DNA of 64,000 nucleotides from Alphaproteobacteria bacterium. Its GTDB lineage: Bacteria > Patescibacteriota > Minisyncoccia > Phycocordibacterales > JABAAK01. Within the stretch, counting starts at the first letter, position 1; every line of letters begins with the position of its first letter. Under the pieces are notes generated by a model that saw only the letters and a program-made list of their open reading frames with translations, was not told the origin of the DNA and ran no database searches. The DNA is taken from assembly GCA_030054135.1 (NCBI GenBank), contig JASGCN010000001.1, forward strand, positions 18,013-82,012. Direction: 5' to 3'. Of this stretch, positions 19,149-59,154 are shown piece by piece. The position numbers and the translations under genes are program-made.

Positions 19149-21230
19149 ATGTTTTTTATCACCACAACACGAATACGGGCATGCGTTCTTGTAATAATAA
19201 TTGCGAGTATATTTTTACTGCTATACTCATCTCATGGATATGCCATTAGCGTAGCAGGTGCAGTGGAAGATGCTCTTTCAACAATTCTTAAAGGATTGAT
19301 TTTATTAATTGCATCTATGTTGAACATCATACTTTCTATTGTTCTGACATTTGCAGAATTTACACTACGATTAGTAAGTTTGGTAATTAATCTTAATTTA
19401 AGCATTGTTGGATTTTTTATTAATTTTGGAATTTTTGGAATAGTGGCAAACATCTTAAAAGATATTATTAACCTATTTATTATCGGAGCATTGATATGGT
19501 TGGCAATAAAAAATCTTTTCACTGAAGAAGCAGAGGCTTCAATTGGGAAAAAAATGCTTATTATTTTTGCAACAATTATTGTAGTAAACTTTAGTGGGTA
19601 TATTATATTATTTCTTGTTGACGCGTCAACATATATATTACAGTTTTCTTCTTATTATTATATTGATTCTAGTCCAAGAGAAGGTTTTGATCCAAATCTA
19701 GTCAATTTTGTACAACACAATCTAAATATTGTAAGATCACTTAATACTGAAACAATAAACGTTGATAACGCATTGGGGATTATGTTCCCATTTCTAGGAC
19801 TTACAGCGGTGTTTTTTTTAATGTTTATATTTTTTAGAGTATGTATGCTTTTAATCATACGATTTATATACACACTTCTTATTATTATGTGCGCACCGTT
19901 GCTAGGAATACAATTTATTAATTCTGCTGCAAGTGGGAATGCTGGCATAGACTATCCTTTTAAAACACAAATAAAAGCAATAGTTGATGAATGGTGGAAT
20001 CAGTTGATAAAAGTATTTCTTTTTATCCCTATATTTTTGCTCGGTATTGGAATTCTTGGAGAAATAATTTCAGATCTCATTGTTCAGAGTGGGTCAAGTT
20101 TTTCAACTAAGCTCGATGTGAAAGGTGTGGCACTTGCACGTAATCAAACACAACTTGCATTTATTCTTCTCATGGTTATTGGATATGGCATTGTATTAAA
20201 AAAAGCTGTTGATTTTGTTGATAGTAAAATTGAAAAAACTATAACAAAAAAAACATGGGACTGGGCATATAGAAAATTTGTTGTTAGCCCTGCAGGACGT
20301 TTCGCAGGAAAAGCAGTTCAAATTGCAGAAAAATATAAACCTACACGCGCTATTTTAAATGGAATAAAATCAGCAGACGAATGGAGAAAAAATACAGACA
20401 ACAGATCTAATAAAGAAATATTTGCAAGTGCATATACTGCTGCAAAAAATAAATTTGAACCTACTGTAGAGCTTAAAAATAATGAATACATAAGAAAACC
20501 AAGCTCTACACTTAATAGGCTGCAAACACAATTAATTGATTTAGAAACAAGAAAAAATGTGGCCGCCAGTAAAAACCAATCAACTGAATCTTTCGATACT
20601 GAAATAAAAAAAATAGGGAAAGAAATAGGGCGTTTAAAAATTACCGAAGATGCAGAAGTAAAACAATATGCTACAAAACTTGCAGTTGATAGTGCTACAC
20701 CCAATTCAACACAAAAAGATGAAGACCAACTTATTAAAGCGGCAGAGAAAATACACAAAACCGCTATCACGCATACAGAAAAAATAGCTTCCATAAAAAA
20801 AAGAGATGACATTACTGATAAAGAAAAACAAATGGAAATTGGTAAAGTAGATACGATAGCAGGAGAAAATTTTTCTGCCGCCATGAATAGTATAACTAAT
20901 AGATCGAATCAAAAAAGTTATGAACAAAATATTCTAAACCCCAAGAGTAGATTTTTAGAAACTATGTATGGCGACGATTTTGCAAGAGTTGCGCGTGGAC
21001 AATCATCCCAAACTCCGCCATCTACATCAACTCCGCCGCCTGCATCAACTCCGCCATCTGCACCACTAGAATTGATGCCCCAAGAAGCACCACTAGAATT
21101 GATGCCCCAAGAAGCACCACTAGAATTGATGCCCCAAGAAGCACCACTAGAATTGATGCCCGAAGAAGGAACACAAGAAGAAGTAAATGCTACTTTGAGA
21201 GAATTGAAAAAAATAGTAGAAAATAAATGA
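19149..21230 (+). CDS. polytopic membrane protein, VirB6/TrbL-like candidate, with C-terminal Pro-rich tandem repeats
   Basis: At least 6-8 hydrophobic helices in the N-terminal 350 aa. Long hydrophilic C-terminal domain ending in PPSTSTPPPASTPPS and 4x APLELMPQE. Positioned just upstream of the VirB3/VirB4-like genes. Confidence 0.55.
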   Translation: MFFITTTRIRACVLVIIIASIFLLLYSSHGYAISVAGAVEDALSTILKGLILLIASMLNIILSIVLTFAEFTLRLVSLVINLNLSIVGFFINFGIFGIVANILKDIINLFIIGALIWLAIKNLFTEEAEASIGKKMLIIFATIIVVNFSGYIILFLVDASTYILQFSSYYYIDSSPREGFDPNLVNFVQHNLNIVRSLNTETINVDNALGIMFPFLGLTAVFFLMFIFFRVCMLLIIRFIYTLLIIMCAPLLGIQFINSAASGNAGIDYPFKTQIKAIVDEWWNQLIKVFLFIPIFLLGIGILGEIISDLIVQSGSSFSTKLDVKGVALARNQTQLAFILLMVIGYGIVLKKAVDFVDSKIEKTITKKTWDWAYRKFVVSPAGRFAGKAVQIAEKYKPTRAILNGIKSADEWRKNTDNRSNKEIFASAYTAAKNKFEPTVELKNNEYIRKPSSTLNRLQTQLIDLETRKNVAASKNQSTESFDTEIKKIGKEIGRLKITEDAEVKQYATKLAVDSATPNSTQKDEDQLIKAAEKIHKTAITHTEKIASIKKRDDITDKEKQMEIGKVDTIAGENFSAAMNSITNRSNQKSYEQNILNPKSRFLETMYGDDFARVARGQSSQTPPSTSTPPPASTPPSAPLELMPQEAPLELMPQEAPLELMPQEAPLELMPEEGTQEEVNATLRELKKIVENK
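21058..21165 (+). repeat. 27-bp tandem repeat x4 (caccactagaattgatgccccaagaag) inside the 3' end of the VirB6-like gene
   Basis: Three identical copies plus one variant. In frame; encodes APLELMPQE repeats. Confidence 0.85.
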
Positions 21231-52450: not shown

Positions 52451-52525
52451 TGGCCCCCTCAGCTGGAATCGAACCAACATCAACGGCTTAGAAGTCCGCT
52501 GTTCTATCCATTGAACTATGAGGGG
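52451..52525 (-). tRNA. tRNA-Arg (anticodon TCT), CCA encoded
   Basis: Manual fold of the reverse complement. Acceptor cccctca/tgagggg. D stem gttc/gaac. Anticodon loop cttctaa. T stem gttgg/ccagc with loop ttcgatt. The anticodon stem has an A31-G39 mismatch. Confidence 0.7.
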
Positions 52526-52620
52526 AGAACAATTCTAGTATACTGAATTGTTTTTTATTTTGCTTATAGTGGATATATCTTTTTTTTGTAATTTAGTTTA
52601 CAATATATTTCATAGCGCAT

Positions 52621-52707
52621 GGAAGGATGGCTGAGTGGTTGAAAGCACCCGTCTTGAAAACGGGCAGGCGCGTAAGCGTCTCGAGAGTTCGAATCTCTCT
52701 CCTTCCG
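52621..52707 (+). tRNA. tRNA-Ser (anticodon TGA), long variable arm
   Basis: Acceptor ggaagga/tccttcc. Anticodon stem cccgt/acggg with loop cttgaaa. Long variable arm gcaggcgcgtaagcgtc. T arm gagag-ttcgaat-ctctc. 87 nt. Confidence 0.8.
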
Positions 52708-52760
52708 CAATGTATTCATTGTACAAAGTTCGAATGTATTTTGAGCAAAACCCTAATGAT

Positions 52761-52913
52761 GAATGAATCGTTCCGCCACTGCCTCGCAAAGCCTCGGCAA
52801 CCCCGAAAGAAAAAACACTCCTTACATTTCTGATTTGGTGGGGGTGAAATTTCTTTTGAAAAAGGAAAGGGTGTTTTTCTTTCGGGGTTCTGCCTTCCAA
52901 GTATTCAGGCAGG
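52761..52913 (+). ncRNA. candidate structured ncRNA: ~150-nt long irregular hairpin with central bubble (6S-RNA-like architecture)
   Basis: Outer stem gttccgccac(tgcct)/(aggc)gtggcggaac, ~15 bp. Internal loop of 16 nt on the left and 19 nt on the right. Inner stem ccccgaaagaaaaaacac/gtgtttttctttcgggg, ~17 bp. Apical sub-hairpin. Higher GC than surroundings. The strand is not determined. Confidence 0.4.
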
Positions 52914-52922
52914 TGGCGGAAC

Positions 52923-53082
52923 AATGCGGACGAAGTTTTGGCAAAACTATTTTTTGGGGAAAGGATTTGCCAAAACTTCGGCTCATTTGTTTTTGAATTC
53001 GGATGTCGCAGATGGAAAAGGAGGGGTTTGGGGAGGAATTTTCCATTTGCTCCTCTGATTTCTTTTGGCGAAATTCTGGCAT
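52923..53082 (+). repeat. GC-rich structured repeat element, left copy (contains 15-bp perfect hairpin 52931-52945/52966-52980)
   Basis: Homologous to the inverted copy at 56441-56574. Begins aatgcggacga. Hairpin stem cgaagttttggcaaa/tttgccaaaacttcg with 20-nt loop. Conserved ggaggggtttggggaggaatttt and tttcttttggcgaaattc blocks. Confidence 0.7.
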
Positions 53083-53163
53083 TGAGAAAAGAATGGGAAG
53101 CTGATATAATTCTATTGCAAGTCATAAGAGTATTATATCACTTTCCATACATTATAGTCTACT

Positions 53164-53364
53164 ATGTCCACAATAGGGAAAAACATCAAAAAATTTAGGC
53201 AAGAAAAAGGGCTTTCGCAAGATAAGCTCTCAAAACTTTCTGACCTTTCATTAAATACTGTTGTTAAAATAGAGTTGGACGATACCCCTAACCCTACCAT
53301 TGAGACAATGCAAAGGATCGCGAAAGCCCTTGTAGTATCAGTTGATGATTTACTCAAAAAATAG
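53164..53364 (+). CDS. XRE-family helix-turn-helix regulator, probable controller (C) protein of the R-M cassette
   Basis: 66-aa HTH (KFRQEKGLSQDKLSKLSDLSLNTVVKIE). First gene of the cassette, 2 nt upstream of the methyltransferase gene. Confidence 0.6.
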   Translation: MSTIGKNIKKFRQEKGLSQDKLSKLSDLSLNTVVKIELDDTPNPTIETMQRIAKALVVSVDDLLKK

Positions 53365-53366
53365 TT

Positions 53367-54197
53367 ATGCAAAAAACTACCGAACAAATTAAATACAAAT
53401 CCGTGCAAACAGTTTTCAATAAACCATTTTTTGCTTCCAGCGATGGTGTCATTAAAATTTATCAAAATGATGCCATTAATTTTTTGAAATCATTGCCAGA
53501 TAATAGCGTTGATTTAATAACAACAGACCCTGCATATTCTGGAATGAATCAAATGTTGAAATTAGGAAAAGGTAAAATAATAGGAACCTACAAAGATAAG
53601 GGCGAAAATGGTGCAAAATGGTTTGAGGAATTCCATGATACGGAAAAAAACTATGCCGAATTTTTAAATGAATGTAAAAGAGTTTTAAAGAATGATAGAC
53701 ATATTTATATTATGTTTGACTCCTATTCTTTATTATCTCTTGCACCGATGGTTCGTCAAATTTTTGATGTTAAAAACATTTTATGCTGGGATAAGGCCAA
53801 CATTGGGCTTGGTCATTATTTCAGAAGAAGACACGAGTTTATTCTATTTGCTAGTAAGGGCAAAAGGCACTTAAAATCAAAAGCTATACCAGATGTATGG
53901 AAAATTAAAAGAGTGACTAAAATAAAATATCCAACTCAAAAACCGACAGAAATCTTTGAGTTGATGATTAAAGGAAGTGCCGAAGACGGATTTGTTGTTT
54001 GCGATCCATTTCTAGGAAGCGGTTCGGCGATGATTGCAAGTATAAAAAATAATTGTAATTTTATTGGTTGCGATATTTCTGAAAAATCAATCAATATATC
54101 TAAACAAAGAGCTGAAGAGTTTTTTAAAACTGGAAAAGACATTTTGCAACCCCAATCATTGCTTTCTGATGATAATTTAACCAACAAACTATTTTGA
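53367..54197 (+). CDS. DNA methyltransferase, beta-class amino-MTase (N6-adenine or N4-cytosine)
   Basis: Motif IV-like LITTDPAYSG near the N-terminus. Motif I VVCDPFLGSGSA near the C-terminus. ParB-like/N-MTase domain order typical of beta-class R-M methylases. Confidence 0.7.
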   Translation: MQKTTEQIKYKSVQTVFNKPFFASSDGVIKIYQNDAINFLKSLPDNSVDLITTDPAYSGMNQMLKLGKGKIIGTYKDKGENGAKWFEEFHDTEKNYAEFLNECKRVLKNDRHIYIMFDSYSLLSLAPMVRQIFDVKNILCWDKANIGLGHYFRRRHEFILFASKGKRHLKSKAIPDVWKIKRVTKIKYPTQKPTEIFELMIKGSAEDGFVVCDPFLGSGSAMIASIKNNCNFIGCDISEKSINISKQRAEEFFKTGKDILQPQSLLSDDNLTNKLF

Positions 54198-54198
54198 T

Positions 54199-55866
54199 AT
54201 GGCAAATTTAAATAAATCTAAAACAATTTTTGCCTTCACATCGCCGAGAACTATTGAAAAAATAATTCCCGAGATTCAAATTTTGATTGACGGATATACT
54301 GGCAAAAAATGGAATAGTGAAACACAAGAAGCATTTTTTAATGATCTTTTTGGGTCTGAGTTTTATGAGGGAAAAGAAAAACCTAAAGATATAACCTTTG
54401 CTGCAAGAGATAGAATCACAAGAGCTCCGAAAGCACTTGGCTTTGTTGATTTAAAACCAGTCATAAAATTAACCGAGGTAGGACAGCAATTATTAAGTGG
54501 CAAGAGAATAAATGAAGTAATAGCAAGACAGTTATTAAAATTCCAACTACCGTCGCCATATCATAAAGTACCAGAAGAAAGAGATTTTAATGTTCGTCCA
54601 TATTTAGAATTATTGAGACTTGTCAAAACCATAGGCAACATTTCAAAAACAGAAATAGCCATATTTTTTGTACAATTAACAAACTACAAAAAATTTGATG
54701 AGATAGTCCGAGCGATTAAAGAATATAGATCTGATTATTCGGCACATACAGGAAATAAAAAAGCCTTTATTGATTCAATTTTTACAAAAGAGATATTGAA
54801 AATTTATGAAGAAGATATAGAAAACGAAGAATTTAAAGGCAGGCAAGATAATGATACTACTTTGCAAGATTTTATAGCTAGAAAGAAAAGTAATCATATT
54901 GATTATGCAGACGCTCTTATTCGATATTTGAGAGCAACACAACTAATAACTTTTGATAAAAATTTTAGAATTATAGTTGCTCCGTCTCGTAACGCCGAGG
55001 TGGATTTTATTTTGCAAAATATAGAAAGAAAGGCACTATTATTTAAAAATGAACAGACTTTTAAAACTTATTTATTTAGTTCAAGCACTTTAGAGCTATT
55101 AACTGATAAGAGAGAAAACGTAGAAAAACAACTGAGTAAAATTGGAGTTGGTTATGATGAAAAAGCAACAGTTGAAGATCTAAAAGACTTATTAGAAAAA
55201 ACCGAAACGGATAGAGTTAATCAAGCAATAGCTCAAACAGAAAAAGGACTCAAGGACTACAAAGAGTTTGATGATATTTTAAGTATATTCGATAAGATAG
55301 ATCAAAAAATCGTCCCCGACCCCTCGCTATATTTAGAATGGAACATTTGGCGTTCAATGGTAATGATTAACTATGCAAAAAAAGTGCAAGGTAATTTTAA
55401 ACTTGACTTAGACGGAGTCCCACTTAATACCGCTGGGGCAAGAATGCCCGACATAGAGATAGATTATGAGAATTTTAAAATGATCGTTGAAGTTACGATG
55501 TCGTCAGGACAAAAACAATATGACATGGAGGGCGAACCAGTACCAAGACATTTTGGAAACGCCAAAAGTTCAACAAATAAGCCTGTGTATTGTTTGTTTA
55601 TCGCTCCTAAAATAAGCGAGGGAACACTCGCTCACTTTTTTGCATTAAATCAAAAAGCTCCTAAATTTTACGGTGGACAAACAAACATAGTCCCTATGAA
55701 TTTAGGAAATTTTAGGCAATTTATCACAACTGCAAAAAATAATAATTTTAATAATCCAAACAACTTACAAGGATATTTAGATAACTTATTGAAACAAAAT
55801 AGGACGATTGATGATGAAGCTGTATGGTTTAAAAATATCGAGGAGTCGGTCGGTCAATGGGTGTAA
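54199..55866 (+). CDS. putative restriction endonuclease partner of the adjacent methyltransferase (555 aa)
   Basis: Assigned by context only (C-protein/MTase/large ORF with tight spacing). No catalytic motif recognised confidently. Confidence 0.35.
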   Translation: MANLNKSKTIFAFTSPRTIEKIIPEIQILIDGYTGKKWNSETQEAFFNDLFGSEFYEGKEKPKDITFAARDRITRAPKALGFVDLKPVIKLTEVGQQLLSGKRINEVIARQLLKFQLPSPYHKVPEERDFNVRPYLELLRLVKTIGNISKTEIAIFFVQLTNYKKFDEIVRAIKEYRSDYSAHTGNKKAFIDSIFTKEILKIYEEDIENEEFKGRQDNDTTLQDFIARKKSNHIDYADALIRYLRATQLITFDKNFRIIVAPSRNAEVDFILQNIERKALLFKNEQTFKTYLFSSSTLELLTDKRENVEKQLSKIGVGYDEKATVEDLKDLLEKTETDRVNQAIAQTEKGLKDYKEFDDILSIFDKIDQKIVPDPSLYLEWNIWRSMVMINYAKKVQGNFKLDLDGVPLNTAGARMPDIEIDYENFKMIVEVTMSSGQKQYDMEGEPVPRHFGNAKSSTNKPVYCLFIAPKISEGTLAHFFALNQKAPKFYGGQTNIVPMNLGNFRQFITTAKNNNFNNPNNLQGYLDNLLKQNRTIDDEAVWFKNIEESVGQWV

Positions 55867-56423
55867 GTATCATTTTTATGACGAGTGATTTGATGACAAT
55901 ACTTAGTTTAATAATCGGAATACTCGGTTTAGTTGTGACTTTGGCTGGGACATATTTTGCCTATATTTCGTTTGTAAATCCGATAATAAGGTTCAAAAAA
56001 TATCTGAAAAATCCTGAAAATTGGGAAAAGTTTCAAGGCATAGACGATCATCTTTCTTTTTATCGCCATAAAAAATATCCTAATTTCCAAATTGTTGTAG
56101 ATTGGGATAAAGAACTTGTGGAAAATTTTCACGAGGAGTGGATAAATGACGGTCTTTATCCCGACAAAACAAACAACGCCTCTTATTATGTTCGGTTAGA
56201 GGCTAATGCAATGTTGTTAGAAAAGGAACTGTTTGTTTCTTTGGACGGACATCGATATTTTGTGCCAGTACCAAAAGTTTTGAGTGTAAAAAATGACGAA
56301 AGAGAGTTTTATTACGACAAGCAACAAGTTCAATTAGCAAAAATTGTTGGACGACATCATTTCGAGAAAGATATTTACGATTTTGCCAAAGAGTGTAAAA
56401 AGCCCATAATGATCAAGGAATAG
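55857..56423 (+). CDS. hypothetical protein with N-terminal TM helix, last gene of the cassette
   Basis: 188-aa ORF overlapping the preceding gene by 10 nt. One N-terminal hydrophobic helix. Confidence 0.35.
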   Translation: MGVSIIFMTSDLMTILSLIIGILGLVVTLAGTYFAYISFVNPIIRFKKYLKNPENWEKFQGIDDHLSFYRHKKYPNFQIVVDWDKELVENFHEEWINDGLYPDKTNNASYYVRLEANAMLLEKELFVSLDGHRYFVPVPKVLSVKNDEREFYYDKQQVQLAKIVGRHHFEKDIYDFAKECKKPIMIKE

Positions 56424-56440
56424 TTTTTCAATCTAGTTGC

Positions 56441-56574
56441 CCGAAATTCGCCAAAAGAAAACAGCGGAGCAAGCGGAGAATTCCTCCCCAGACCCCTCCT
56501 GCGGGCGGGAAATCAGCCGAGGCAAGGCGAATCCATTCCCCCGATAAATAGTTTCGCCTTGCCTCGTCCGCATT
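56441..56574 (-). repeat. GC-rich structured repeat element, right copy (inverted; contains 14-bp perfect hairpin 56518-56531/56553-56566)
   Basis: The reverse complement aligns along its length with 52923-53082. Hairpin stem cgaggcaaggcgaa/ttcgccttgcctcg differs from the left copy by paired compensatory changes. The loop is similar. Confidence 0.7.
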
Positions 56575-56676
56575 AGTATTTTTAATCATTTGGATTTTCT
56601 TGGAAAAACATTCGAACTTTGTCCAACAAACACCGCAATGTATTCAGGAAAGAATAATCTGGTGTATTATAAAAAT

Positions 56677-59154
56677 ATGCAATTTAGTCCTGAAATCTTT
56701 GAAAAAAAGTGGCAACAAAAATGGCAAGAGGACAATGTATATCGGACTGAGAATTTTACTGATACACCACACTGCTTTGTGTTGGATATGTTTCCATATC
56801 CATCGGGAAGCTCAATGCATGTGGGACATCCTCGTGGGTATGTGGCAACAGATATTTACAGTCGCTTTAAAAGAATGAATGGATTTAATGTATTGCACCC
56901 AATGGGATGGGATGCGTTTGGTCTCCCTGCGGAAGAAACTGCAATAGAGAATAAAGAATATCCAACAGAGACAGTGGAGAGAAATATTAAAAAATTTAAA
57001 ATTCAGCTCAATATGCTTGGACTTGGGTACGATTGGTCTCGAGAAATTAATACCACCGATCCTGAATATTATGTGCATACGCAAAGAATTTTTCTTGAAT
57101 TTTTTAAACGAGGGCTTGCAACAAATAAAACTATTCCTGTTAATTGGTGTGAAGAATTGGGCACCGTGCTTGCAAACGAAGACATAGTAGACGGAAAAAG
57201 TGAACGCGGAGGACACCCCGTGTTTCAAAAACCAATGCGTCAATGGATTCTTGCGATTACAAAATATGCAGATCGTCTTATTGATGATTTAGATTTATTA
57301 GATCAATGGCCTGAAAAAATAAAAAATGCACAGCGCAACTGGATTGGTAGAAGTGAAGGACATGAATTTTCTTTTTCAACAAGTGCGGGCATTCCTATTT
57401 CCATATACACTACAAAAATTGAAACGCTCCCGGGTGCCACTTGTGTAGTGGTTGCTCCAGACGGAGAACTCACAGAGCAGTTGCTTGCTACCTCTACCAA
57501 CGCACAACAAATTAAAAACTATATAACACAAAGCAGTCAAAAAACAACTTTAGAAAGACAAGCGGTTACAGAAAAAACAGGAGTAATTATTGAAGGCGTT
57601 ACTGCAACAAATCCATTTACAAAAGAACAAATACCAATTATAGTTTCTGATTATGTACTATCTTCATACGGAACAGGAGCAATTATGGCAGTTCCTGCAC
57701 ATGATGAACGCGATAGTGAAATTGCAAAAGTTTTTAATATAGAATCACGCACAGTAATTGAACATGATGTGCTCGTACACGCGCACGCATTAAATGGAAA
57801 AACGGTTGAGGAGGCGCGAACAATCCTTTCTGACATGGTTGATGCAAAAAAACAAAAACGCTACAAAATTCGTGATTGGGTTTTTTCAAGACAGCGATTT
57901 TGGGGTGAGCCGTTTCCTATTGTATGGATTGAAGGAAAAAATAATTATGAATTAGTAGCACAGGGGCCAGTTGGTGCGTGGCTACCAAAAGAAGCAGTGA
58001 TGTATATTCACGATGGAAAAGAACAATACGCCGTACCAGTATTGCCTGAATTTTTACACACAATGCAATTGCCAAAAGTTGCTTCATATCAGCCAACAGG
58101 AACTCTTGAAGGGCCACTTGCGGGCATTGATACATGGGTCAATGTGTTTCTTGATCCAACAACAGGGGCAATTTCACAAAACAAAGAAACTACACACGCA
58201 ATTCCTGCACGAAGAGAAACAAATACTATGCCTCAATGGGCGGGCTCTTCGTGGTATTGGTTTCGATACATGGATACAAAAAACAAAGAACTTCCTTTTT
58301 CAAAACAATCTGTTGATTACTGGGGGCCGGTACACATATATGCAGGAGCAGATCATGCCGTTGCACATTTGATTTATGCACGGTTCTGGCACAAAGTTAT
58401 GCAAGACGCAGGTATGGTTGATTTTCCAGAGCCATTTACACGATTAGAATTTCTTGGATACATTCTTGCACCAGACGGCTCAAAAATATCAAAAAGAAAA
58501 GGGAACAGTCGTTCTCCAGAAGATGTCATCAACACTGTTGGCGCAGATGCATTTCGTATGTATGAAATGTTTATAGGTCCGTTTGAAAAGTCAGCTCCTT
58601 GGAGTGATGATGGGCTTGTTGGATCACGCAGATTTCTTGAACGAGTGTGGCGTCTGCATGAATCAGTAGTTGAAAAAAATGTAGCCACTACAGATGCACA
58701 CGCACTTTCATCAATTCACAAAACAATACAGAAAGTGGGAAACGACATTGAAACATTTAAATTTAATACTGCCGTTTCAAGTATGATGATTTGCTTAAAT
58801 GAAATACAAGATGTAGATATTGCTGTCGCAGATTTTAAACATTTCATTTCTATTCTTGCACCATTTGCACCACACATAACAGAAGAGATGTGGCATGTGA
58901 TGGGACACACATCGTCAATTCATCTCTCTACATGGCCCACAGTAAATAAAAGTGTCATTCGTCAAGAAAGTATCACAGTACCAATCCAAATTAATGGAAA
59001 AGTACGATCACAAATTGATGTACCGATGGATATGCCTGAAAAAGAACTTGAAACACTTGCTCTTGAAGATGCAGCTATTCAAAAACATCTTTCTGGAAAA
59101 ACCACACAAAAAATAATAATAGTACCTAATCGTATCGTGAATATACTGGTGTAA
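56677..59154 (+). CDS. leuS: leucyl-tRNA synthetase
   Basis: HIGH-region P.PSGS.HVGHPRGY. Editing CP1 domain. KMSKS-like KISKRKGN. The start was moved to ATG 56677 (MQFSPEIFEKKWQQKW); the track ORF begins at 56590 inside the repeat element. Confidence 0.9.
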   Translation: MQFSPEIFEKKWQQKWQEDNVYRTENFTDTPHCFVLDMFPYPSGSSMHVGHPRGYVATDIYSRFKRMNGFNVLHPMGWDAFGLPAEETAIENKEYPTETVERNIKKFKIQLNMLGLGYDWSREINTTDPEYYVHTQRIFLEFFKRGLATNKTIPVNWCEELGTVLANEDIVDGKSERGGHPVFQKPMRQWILAITKYADRLIDDLDLLDQWPEKIKNAQRNWIGRSEGHEFSFSTSAGIPISIYTTKIETLPGATCVVVAPDGELTEQLLATSTNAQQIKNYITQSSQKTTLERQAVTEKTGVIIEGVTATNPFTKEQIPIIVSDYVLSSYGTGAIMAVPAHDERDSEIAKVFNIESRTVIEHDVLVHAHALNGKTVEEARTILSDMVDAKKQKRYKIRDWVFSRQRFWGEPFPIVWIEGKNNYELVAQGPVGAWLPKEAVMYIHDGKEQYAVPVLPEFLHTMQLPKVASYQPTGTLEGPLAGIDTWVNVFLDPTTGAISQNKETTHAIPARRETNTMPQWAGSSWYWFRYMDTKNKELPFSKQSVDYWGPVHIYAGADHAVAHLIYARFWHKVMQDAGMVDFPEPFTRLEFLGYILAPDGSKISKRKGNSRSPEDVINTVGADAFRMYEMFIGPFEKSAPWSDDGLVGSRRFLERVWRLHESVVEKNVATTDAHALSSIHKTIQKVGNDIETFKFNTAVSSMMICLNEIQDVDIAVADFKHFISILAPFAPHITEEMWHVMGHTSSIHLSTWPTVNKSVIRQESITVPIQINGKVRSQIDVPMDMPEKELETLALEDAAIQKHLSGKTTQKIIIVPNRIVNILV

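Follow-up and report, generated by a model that had tools for sequence, protein, structure and literature searches.

Mobile insertion cassettes (MICs), of which MIC231 of Bacillus cereus is an example, carry passenger genes between inverted terminal repeats and hold no transposase inside, and the pdif modules of Acinetobacter plasmids keep their cargo between inverted 28-bp XerC/XerD sites. Casposons enclose a Cas1-type integrase and a polymerase within terminal inverted repeats, with a 14-15-bp duplication at tRNA 3' ends. How bacteria of the Candidate Phyla Radiation (CPR, Patescibacteria), with their tiny genomes, acquire and exchange defence systems is poorly understood, and to our knowledge these bacteria have few recognisable mobile elements and mostly no CRISPR. 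Here we analysed a stretch of 64,000 nt of contig JASGCN010000001.1 (positions 18,013 to 82,012 of the forward strand, assembly GCA_030054135.1), hereafter called the window, in which a long irregular hairpin (hairpin 1) lies between a tRNA-Ser gene and leuS at the edge of a restriction-modification cassette. Restriction-modification units in long inverted repeats and “insertion with long, variable target duplication” were described by Furuta, Abe and Kobayashi in 2010 (PMC2853133); their cases were isolated, with repeats of 26-65 bp that were each unique to one genome (PMC2853133).

We consider it likely, with a probability of roughly 60%, that hairpin 1 acts in cis as a structural module within a terminal inverted repeat of ~370 nt with three hairpins, and that this repeat delimits a cargo element without a transposase that has inserted between tRNA-Ser and leuS. 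Such an element shares with MICs and other non-autonomous, cargo-carrying transposon derivatives the inverted terminal repeats, the lack of a transposase within, the presumed mobilisation in trans and the flanking direct repeats. Unlike the short insertion sequence (IS) ends of MICs, the CPR repeats are ~370 nt long and contain three covarying hairpins; the family has flanking duplications of 14 to 59 nt with no cognate IS found, and among named matches it appears largely confined to CPR genomes and is specialised in defence cargo. In the units of Furuta et al., too, long imperfect inverted repeats enclose restriction-modification genes, mobility genes are lacking, the target is duplicated and the location is sometimes next to tRNA genes (PMC2853133), whereas here one conserved, structured repeat family encloses dozens of cargos in many lineages. 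Similar to the pdif modules, diverse cargo without a recombinase of its own lies between inverted sites and is presumably moved by a host enzyme, yet the CPR units are chromosomal and have ~370-nt multi-hairpin ends and target duplications. Thus the kind of element is known in outline from MICs and from the restriction-modification units of Furuta et al. (PMC2853133), and what sets this family apart is the long modular three-hairpin repeat, the breadth across the CPR, the hyper-diverse, defence-rich cargo and the variable target duplications. Our literature search found no description of a like mobile-element family.

The inverted repeat pair and its cassette

The left terminal inverted repeat of ~363 nt (52719-53081, + strand), which is conserved in CPR loci, has an inverted match to 56438-56633. 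From outside to inside it consists of an outer segment, hairpin 1 (52767-52925), hairpin 2 (52920-52991), hairpin 3 (53008-53050) and a G-rich loop, with a T-rich inner edge; no strand is assigned to the hairpins. The right terminal inverted repeat of ~195 nt (56438-56632, - strand) comprises the outer segment and hairpins 2 and 3 without hairpin 1, its outer segment running directly into AATGCGGAC. A whole-window repeat search returned inverted matches of 53019-53081 to 56438-56500 (63 nt, 87%) and of 52712-52763 to 56582-56633 (52 nt, 77%), and alignment of both sides gave one repeat unit in two inverted copies that bracket a 3.4-kb cassette. Hairpin 2 is present in both copies and differs between them by compensatory changes (GACGAAGTTTTGGCAAA versus GACGAGGCAAGGCGAA). 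The 12-bp stem of hairpin 3 also covaries (ATGGAAAA/TTTTCCAT to GCGGAGGA/TCCTCCGC) around a conserved loop, GGAGGGGTTTGGGGAGGAA, a motif that occurs twice in the window. Immediately outside the inverted repeats lie the two copies of an exact 14-nt direct repeat, CCGCAATGTATTCA, at 52705-52718 and 56633-56646 (both + strand), which are its only exact matches in the window. As the first-pass annotation had noted, the hairpin lies directly downstream of a tRNA-Ser gene: the 3' end of tRNA-Ser(UGA) (52621-52708, + strand; ARAGORN, and Rfam tRNA at 60.8 bits) abuts the element, and its last 3 nt fall within the left direct repeat. From the repeat pair, the enclosed cassette and the direct repeats it follows that a 3.9-kb insertion separates tRNA-Ser from leuS and that hairpin 1 belongs to its left end, where it is the largest module of the terminal repeat. 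A further suggestion of the annotation, that it might be a third, diverged member of the flanking repeat family, was right in assigning the hairpin to the repeats around the cassette, but hairpin 1 is an extra module of the left copy and not a diverged copy.

The cargo in the window is a type IIS restriction-modification operon, all on the + strand. A strong sigma-70-like promoter (TTGAGA-17-TGnTATAAT, 11/12 matches; 53082-53110) sits at the inner edge of the left repeat and is followed by genes for a 66-aa HTH_3 controller-type protein or C-protein (53164-53364; Pfam HTH_3, 5e-13), a 276-aa N6/N4 DNA methyltransferase (53367-54197; Pfam N6_N4_Mtase, 1e-30) and a 555-aa AlwI-family restriction endonuclease (54199-55866; Pfam RE_AlwI, 9e-54). 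The fourth cassette gene, an open reading frame (ORF) of 188 aa without a significant Pfam family (55857-56423), overlaps the end of the endonuclease gene. Beyond the insertion lies the host gene leuS (56677-59154, + strand), whose 825-aa product has the Pfam tRNA-synt_1 and editing domains. Pfam analysis of the cargo proteins detected no transposase, integrase or other recombinase in the cassette or beside it.

Fold of hairpin 1

The first-pass annotation had placed a long irregular hairpin at 52761-52913. The hairpin exists and folds beyond chance, but the end at 52913 cuts through its 3' arm and the real span is 52767-52925. Over this span the minimum free energy as RNA is -68.2 kcal/mol (z -6.2) and the DNA fold reaches -39.3 kcal/mol (z -7.0), with 0/200 shuffles equal in either case; the shorter piece 52761-52913 gives -51.4 kcal/mol (z -2.9) as RNA. 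Both strands fold equally well. Hairpin 1 is an imperfect palindrome with arms ATCGTTCCGCCAC (52767-52779) and GTGGCGGAACAAT (52913-52925), and its closing stem, which pairs 52770-52784 with 52907-52922, agrees with the annotated ~15 bp and 10-bp perfect core, having 15 bp with one bulged G and the core GTTCCGCCAC/GTGGCGGAAC. The annotated internal stem of ~17 bp also stands (52796-52814 with 52874-52894, containing a perfect 16-bp block of 52799-52814 with 52874-52889), as does an apical sub-hairpin, which is predicted. The central bubble was put at 16/19 nt; the internal loop is instead 11 nt (52785-52795) by 12 nt (52895-52906), because TGCC/GGCA pairs close both sides. In an alternative fold the loop strands form side hairpins (TGCC..GGCA and CTGCCY..RGGCAG), which turns the structure into a four-way junction, and the side stem CTGCCY..RGGCAG covaries (C-G to U-A, 54 versus 20).

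The region is richer in GC than its surroundings, as annotated (0.41-0.47, against about 0.30-0.35 in the adjacent cassette). Its lack of coding potential likewise held up: a 77-aa ORF at 52763-52996 (MNRSATASL...) was rejected as coding, since it is not conserved and is broken by length differences of 1-2 nt among the homologues, which measure 148, 149, 150, 152 or 153 nt. Rfam models at gathering score found only tRNAs and no 6S RNA in the whole window, and at E<=10 over 52500-53200 only weak microRNA-type noise, with no 6S, signal recognition particle RNA, Y RNA or other bacterial family; on five related loci there was again no 6S RNA, only tRNAs and one group I intron. A promoter and terminator scan gave no signal for a stand-alone RNA gene, its sole find being the cargo promoter. 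The 3' side of the internal loop (52888-52909, TCTGCCTTCCAAGTATTCAGG) resembles the reconstructed empty site (52697-52718 plus 56647-56655, TCTCCTTCCGCAATGTATTCAGG), a marginal likeness (score 26; shuffles 16.9 +/- 2.5, 5/500 as high). The motif GTATTCA also opens the left repeat terminus.

Homologues, cargo and ends of the repeat family

One genome per species was scanned with the pattern GTTCCGCCAC-N(120-150)-GTGGCGGAAC. Among the 118 stretches matched, 37 are clear homologues of hairpin 1, 148-153 nt long and about 85-95% identical; about 80 GC-rich matches were set aside as chance or coding sequence, and a 153-nt palindrome with the same 10-nt termini on an Abditibacterium contig proved to be an unrelated, longer palindrome. 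Most homologues lie in metagenome-assembled genomes named as CPR lineages (Parcubacteria, Paceibacteria, Saccharibacteria, Moranbacteria, Uhrbacteria, Berkelbacteria, Doudnabacteria, Campbellbacteria, Taylorbacteria, Ryanbacteria and Nomurabacteria), the exceptions being several records labelled only “bacterium” and one labelled Nitrospirota. Of the 37, 36 share the repeat context and are followed by hairpin 2, none was seen on its own, and the outer segment upstream comes in three variants. Hairpin 1 is 85-95% identical in genomes whose LeuRS is at most 74% identical to that of this genome, which argues for horizontal spread and against a housekeeping gene. The next named LeuRS relatives (<=74% identity) belong to Patescibacteria, Moranbacteria and Falkowbacteria. 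Upstream of leuS, two relatives share neither synteny nor repeats with the window. The NCBI label of the present genome, “Alphaproteobacteria bacterium”, looks wrong, as both the LeuRS relatives and the hosts of the repeat family point to Patescibacteria.

A metagenome scan for the hairpin 3 loop motif recovered at least 120 contigs with the repeat. Of two scans of viral contigs, the one for the same motif returned nothing and the other only a chance match, and the whole repeat had no BLAST match in phage and plasmid collections. Many copies lie within 50-400 nt of contig ends, with the contig breaking inside the repeat, as expected from inverted repeats, which break short-read assemblies; this explains CPR assembly breaks at repeat loci, and a Logan contig of the same strain also breaks inside the left repeat. 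In LBUF02000001 and CALRBR010000003, two facing copies stand 5 kb apart on one contig. The repeat is modular. Among 93 distinct repeat copies whose upstream sequence is long enough, 78 (84%) have hairpins 1 and 2; some copies have a different long hairpin at the position of hairpin 1, and in one locus (L146) both hairpins have been lost between GCTC microhomologies. Therefore, the lack of hairpin 1 in the right copy of the window is most simply a deletion. The variants of the closing stem are compensated (GTTCCGCCAC/GTGGCGGAAC, ..CCCGCCAC/GTGGCGGGAC and GCCCCGC../GCGTGGGGC). As in MICs, two inverted copies surround passenger genes (in the window, in the LBUF02000001 and CALRBR010000003 pairs and in 29 metagenome units), and the same unit is found at different genomic sites. 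Two loci, L193 and L143, are 93% identical over 3.96 kb from the outer end of the repeat and have unrelated flanks; LBUF02000001 and CALRBR010000003, from different genomes, form a mosaic with 3.1 kb of cargo and the repeats in common and with other cargo and flanks that differ.

The 29 metagenome contigs hold complete units, repeat(+)...repeat(-), with 2-10.5 kb of cargo and 116 ORFs in 95 clusters. The window cargo, 107 of the unit ORFs and 20 further cargo ORFs were analysed with Pfam and PADLOC. The cargo is very diverse and consists mostly of restriction-modification and other defence genes: among the 107 ORFs we found methyltransferases (nine N6/N4, three C5 and three D12), endonucleases (EcoRI, MvaI/BcnI, Tsp45I and HaeIII), ResIII helicases, HNH nucleases, ThsB-TIR, GmrSD and AbiEii-like ATPases, next to a few metabolic genes (PPDK-like, class-V aminotransferase and AlaRS-like). 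The LBUF02000001 and CALRBR010000003 units encode Dam-like and N4/N6 methyltransferases and an endonuclease-like protein, plus a protease-like or DUF262-like protein. In longer loci with one repeat end we found type I and type III-like systems, a Z1-domain protein or a cluster for lipid metabolism, and no mobility gene. No recurrent transposase, integrase or Cas1 family occurs in the 107 unit ORFs, and the window cargo, these ORFs and the 20 further ones together show no recurrent mobility family. The only transposase seen in about 240 loci belongs to the IS110 family (Pfam DEDD_Tnp_IS110 and Transposase_20; locus L165, ORF 279-1364 in a ~1.36-kb insertion at 230-1590) and was rejected as a partner, being a nested insertion. 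The insertion occupies the loop of a hairpin, the outer “type B” one (CACGCGC-GGAG-CGCGTG), in the left terminal repeat of the L165 element, which makes the hairpins of the repeat targets, in their turn, of insertion sequences that seek out hairpins.

At the outer terminus the consensus reads ..TKGCGGTGTGTATTAA, then ACAAAGTTCGAATGTATTTTG, or the related GCTGTGTCTCCTGAACAAAATCCGAAC. Flanking direct repeats measure 14 nt in the window, 14 nt in LBUF02000001, 52 nt in L165 and 59 nt in L238. That of LBUF02000001, TTAAATACGAAATT, begins 2 nt past a tRNA-Gln gene, and in L165 and L238 a palindromic terminator next to the repeat at both ends makes up the direct repeat. The loop of this terminator looks flipped if each end is followed from its outside inwards, and the terminator pair could reflect either a long target duplication or the flip-flop of a hairpin at the terminus. 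Each 14-mer of the window is half flank and half sequence that resembles the repeat terminus: CCGCAAT, in reverse complement, gives the right terminus ATTGCGG, and GTATTCA, which forms the inner 7 nt of the left copy, is the start of the left terminus and matches the consensus. The 14-mer of LBUF02000001 is likewise composed of TTAAATAC and GAAATT. Since half of the 14-mer is the repeat's own terminus, the true target duplication may, judged from these sequences, be 7-8 bp beside an end-like target.

Outer ends are enriched at tRNA 3' ends, although this is not a rule. They abut a tRNA 3' end in the window and in L113, L121, L165, L126 and L238; a strict tRNA target was rejected, as a tRNA gene was present within 200 nt of only about 6 of the 42 outer ends that could be evaluated, though in each of these cases its 3' end faces the outer end. 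In L238 the terminal repeat adjoins a tRNA gene that is split by a group I intron (2018-2267; Rfam, 73 bits), which is why ARAGORN missed this tRNA. The first-pass annotation had also considered an integrase attachment region. Neither an integrase nor a classical att core is evident; the latter was rejected because the direct repeats differ between insertions. Like the attC sites of integrons and other folded single-strand DNA sites, hairpin 1 is an imperfect palindrome (60-150 nt in attC) conserved in structure over sequence and associated with gene cassettes. However, attC sites stand in direct orientation at the 3' ends of cassettes and have RYYYAAC/GTTRRRY cores and an integron integrase, none of which is seen here: the copies are inverted, the termini GTTCCGCC/GGCGGAAC do not fit GTTRRRY/RYYYAAC, and no integrase lies in or beside the cassette. 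Casposons were rejected as well: a 14-nt repeat and tRNA adjacency do occur in two cases, but the listed cargo families include neither Cas1 nor a polymerase, and the other direct repeats are 52-59 nt. A likeness of the inner repeat edge GGGCGGACAAAA to the Tn7 end was dropped, the order and orientation not fitting.

Mode of action and competing explanations

Hairpin 1 is under selection for pairing. Across 24 homologues, pairing is kept in 98% of the cells of the consensus structure, and six pairs show two-sided changes, above shuffled and slid controls; that helix 1 is invariant in this set is imposed by the search pattern. In larger sets, counted over pairs common to both strands, the core of hairpin 1 has 1522 Watson-Crick, 19 GU, 9 AC and 9 other pairs and that of hairpin 3 has 886, 5, 7 and 7, respectively, a scarcity of non-Watson-Crick pairs that partly reflects low divergence. 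The helices lack the strand-specific signature of an RNA and show the pattern of palindromic DNA whose arms are kept complementary. According to the reading that we prefer, hairpin 1 would function as DNA: the palindrome could extrude a hairpin from either strand and serve for example as a recognition or architectural site rather than as a strand-specific RNA. The unit would move, or would formerly have moved, as a whole by means of an enzyme supplied in trans that recognises the repeat ends. Hairpin 1 would then be a common module that is dispensable for persistence, and the right copy would have lost it, most simply by palindrome deletion.

On a wider scale we propose, tentatively, that these units may form an undescribed family of transposase-less “cassette shuttles” centred on the CPR, in which diverse defence operons and some metabolic ones travel within the ~370-nt three-hairpin inverted repeat. 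They would pass between remote Patescibacteria lineages through a mechanism acting in trans that reads DNA hairpins, and would insert with target duplications of variable length, in many cases at terminators or on the 3' side of tRNA genes. Such shuttles might be coupled to the uptake of single-stranded DNA, with the bubble of hairpin 1 as a single-strand promoter or recognition site. If this is true, the family would be a major route of defence-gene traffic in the CPR radiation (restriction-modification, Thoeris-like and GmrSD-like cassettes) and its repeat a searchable marker for new cargo. Furthermore, the combination of no encoded recombinase, hairpin-rich ends and variable duplications points to an insertion mechanism outside the standard transposon families.

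Several points weigh against an element bounded and moved in this manner. No empty site was recovered in a close relative, the nearest LeuRS being 74% identical with synteny lost. The direct repeats are of inconsistent length (14, 14, 52 and 59 nt) and partly overlap terminus-like sequence, and their lengths therefore do not match a transposase of fixed stagger. Among about 240 loci we found neither an autonomous relative nor a cognate transposase. As the scarcity of non-Watson-Crick pairs partly reflects low divergence, there may also be a function at the RNA level, and the T-rich tracts inward of hairpins 2 and 3 also fit a transcriptional role.

Such a role is at the centre of one alternative, which we regard as unlikely, namely that the repeat is a transcriptional insulator or another RNA-level element. 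Its three hairpins would terminate or process inward read-through, here from tRNA-Ser, and so shield the toxic cargo (the endonuclease) and the host neighbours, with hairpin 1 as a long double-stranded RNA processing or roadblock module. The layout is suited to this, as the element begins 11 nt past the tRNA gene with no terminator between, the strong cargo promoter lies directly inside the repeat and the inward T-rich tracts (CATTTGTTTTTG, TCCTCTTTTTGTTTT) are conserved; yet no canonical intrinsic terminator was detected, the loops being 19-20 nt and the T-runs beginning 4-5 nt past the stems. The top strand, read from outer to inner, is more stable than the bottom strand by ~19 kcal/mol in 71/71 copies, which would favour a transcript. 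This strand is G+T-rich, however, and the advantage is one of composition: against composition-matched shuffles it vanishes, the whole repeat scoring z -5.6 on the + (top) strand and -7.9 on the - (bottom) strand, and we rejected it as evidence for RNA. Moreover, the core helices contain GU pairs no more often than AC mismatches, and an insulator leaves unexplained why the repeats are the boundaries of the transferred unit.

Lower still we rank a nested parasitic palindrome, an improbable reading in which hairpin 1 is a current or former miniature inverted-repeat transposable element (MITE) that landed in the left repeat and is carried along without a function for the cassette. It is attractive in that, of the two copies in this element, the left one contains hairpin 1 and the right one cleanly lacks it, and in that hairpin 1 has a MITE-like size with terminal inverted repeats of 13 nt and belongs to a repeat in which modules are present, absent or swapped among copies and in which other mobile DNA nests (the IS110-family insertion of L165). 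Against this, 36 of the 37 genomic homologues stand in the identical context, followed by hairpin 2, no second copy was found when one was sought in the 64-kb window, and no target-site duplication surrounds hairpin 1. With hairpin 1 in 84% of repeat copies, its loss is also simpler as a deletion, as in L146. A stand-alone MITE was rejected on account of the same repeat context, the single window copy and the lack of a flanking duplication.

The proposal of the first-pass annotation that hairpin 1 is the gene of a 6S-like or other trans-acting small RNA, with its own transcription and a bubble mimicking an open promoter to bind RNA polymerase, is not supported and seems to us very improbable: the closing stem, internal loop and long inner stem do resemble 6S RNA (RF00013 and relatives), the size of ~150-160 nt is near the low end for 6S, the fold is highly significant with pairing kept by covariation, and weak promoter-like hexamers read by eye (TTGAGC-16-ATGAAT, missed by the promoter scan) end just upstream, but hairpin 1 matches no covariance model at E<=10, its loop is small, and in place of the vertical, single-copy pattern of a housekeeping RNA it is a patchy, horizontally spread and dispensable part of inverted repeats, found in other genomes as two inverted copies per element around accessory cassettes, lost from the right copy here and without strand asymmetry. 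A false 6S RNA call is thus avoided in annotation.

Some further features of the repeats and of the window were noticed. The 3' loop variant of hairpin 1 tends to match the variant of the outer terminus: the loop GGTCTC goes with the terminus GTGTCTCC in 10/12 copies, and the loop GTATTC mostly with GTATTCA/GTGTAT termini (compared in L013, L028, L036, L056, L057, L063, L102, L103, L106 and L113 versus L012, L015, L025, L040 and others); this association could be linkage or a shared binding motif. Three loci (L021, L025 and L102) have in common a conserved stretch of ~90 nt just inside the repeat edge (..GGGTCCATCCTCGGCATTCGCCTCGGACATTTCCGCTAGGGCTACTCGCGCCTAGATGTCTAGG..), within which a tRNA-Arg is called on the opposite strand in L025 (4737-4809). 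Apart from the element, the window contains at 21033-21194 a tandem array of about five copies of a 27-nt unit, GCACCACTAGAATTGATGCCCCAAGAA, with 98-100% identity, which is probably a coding repeat.

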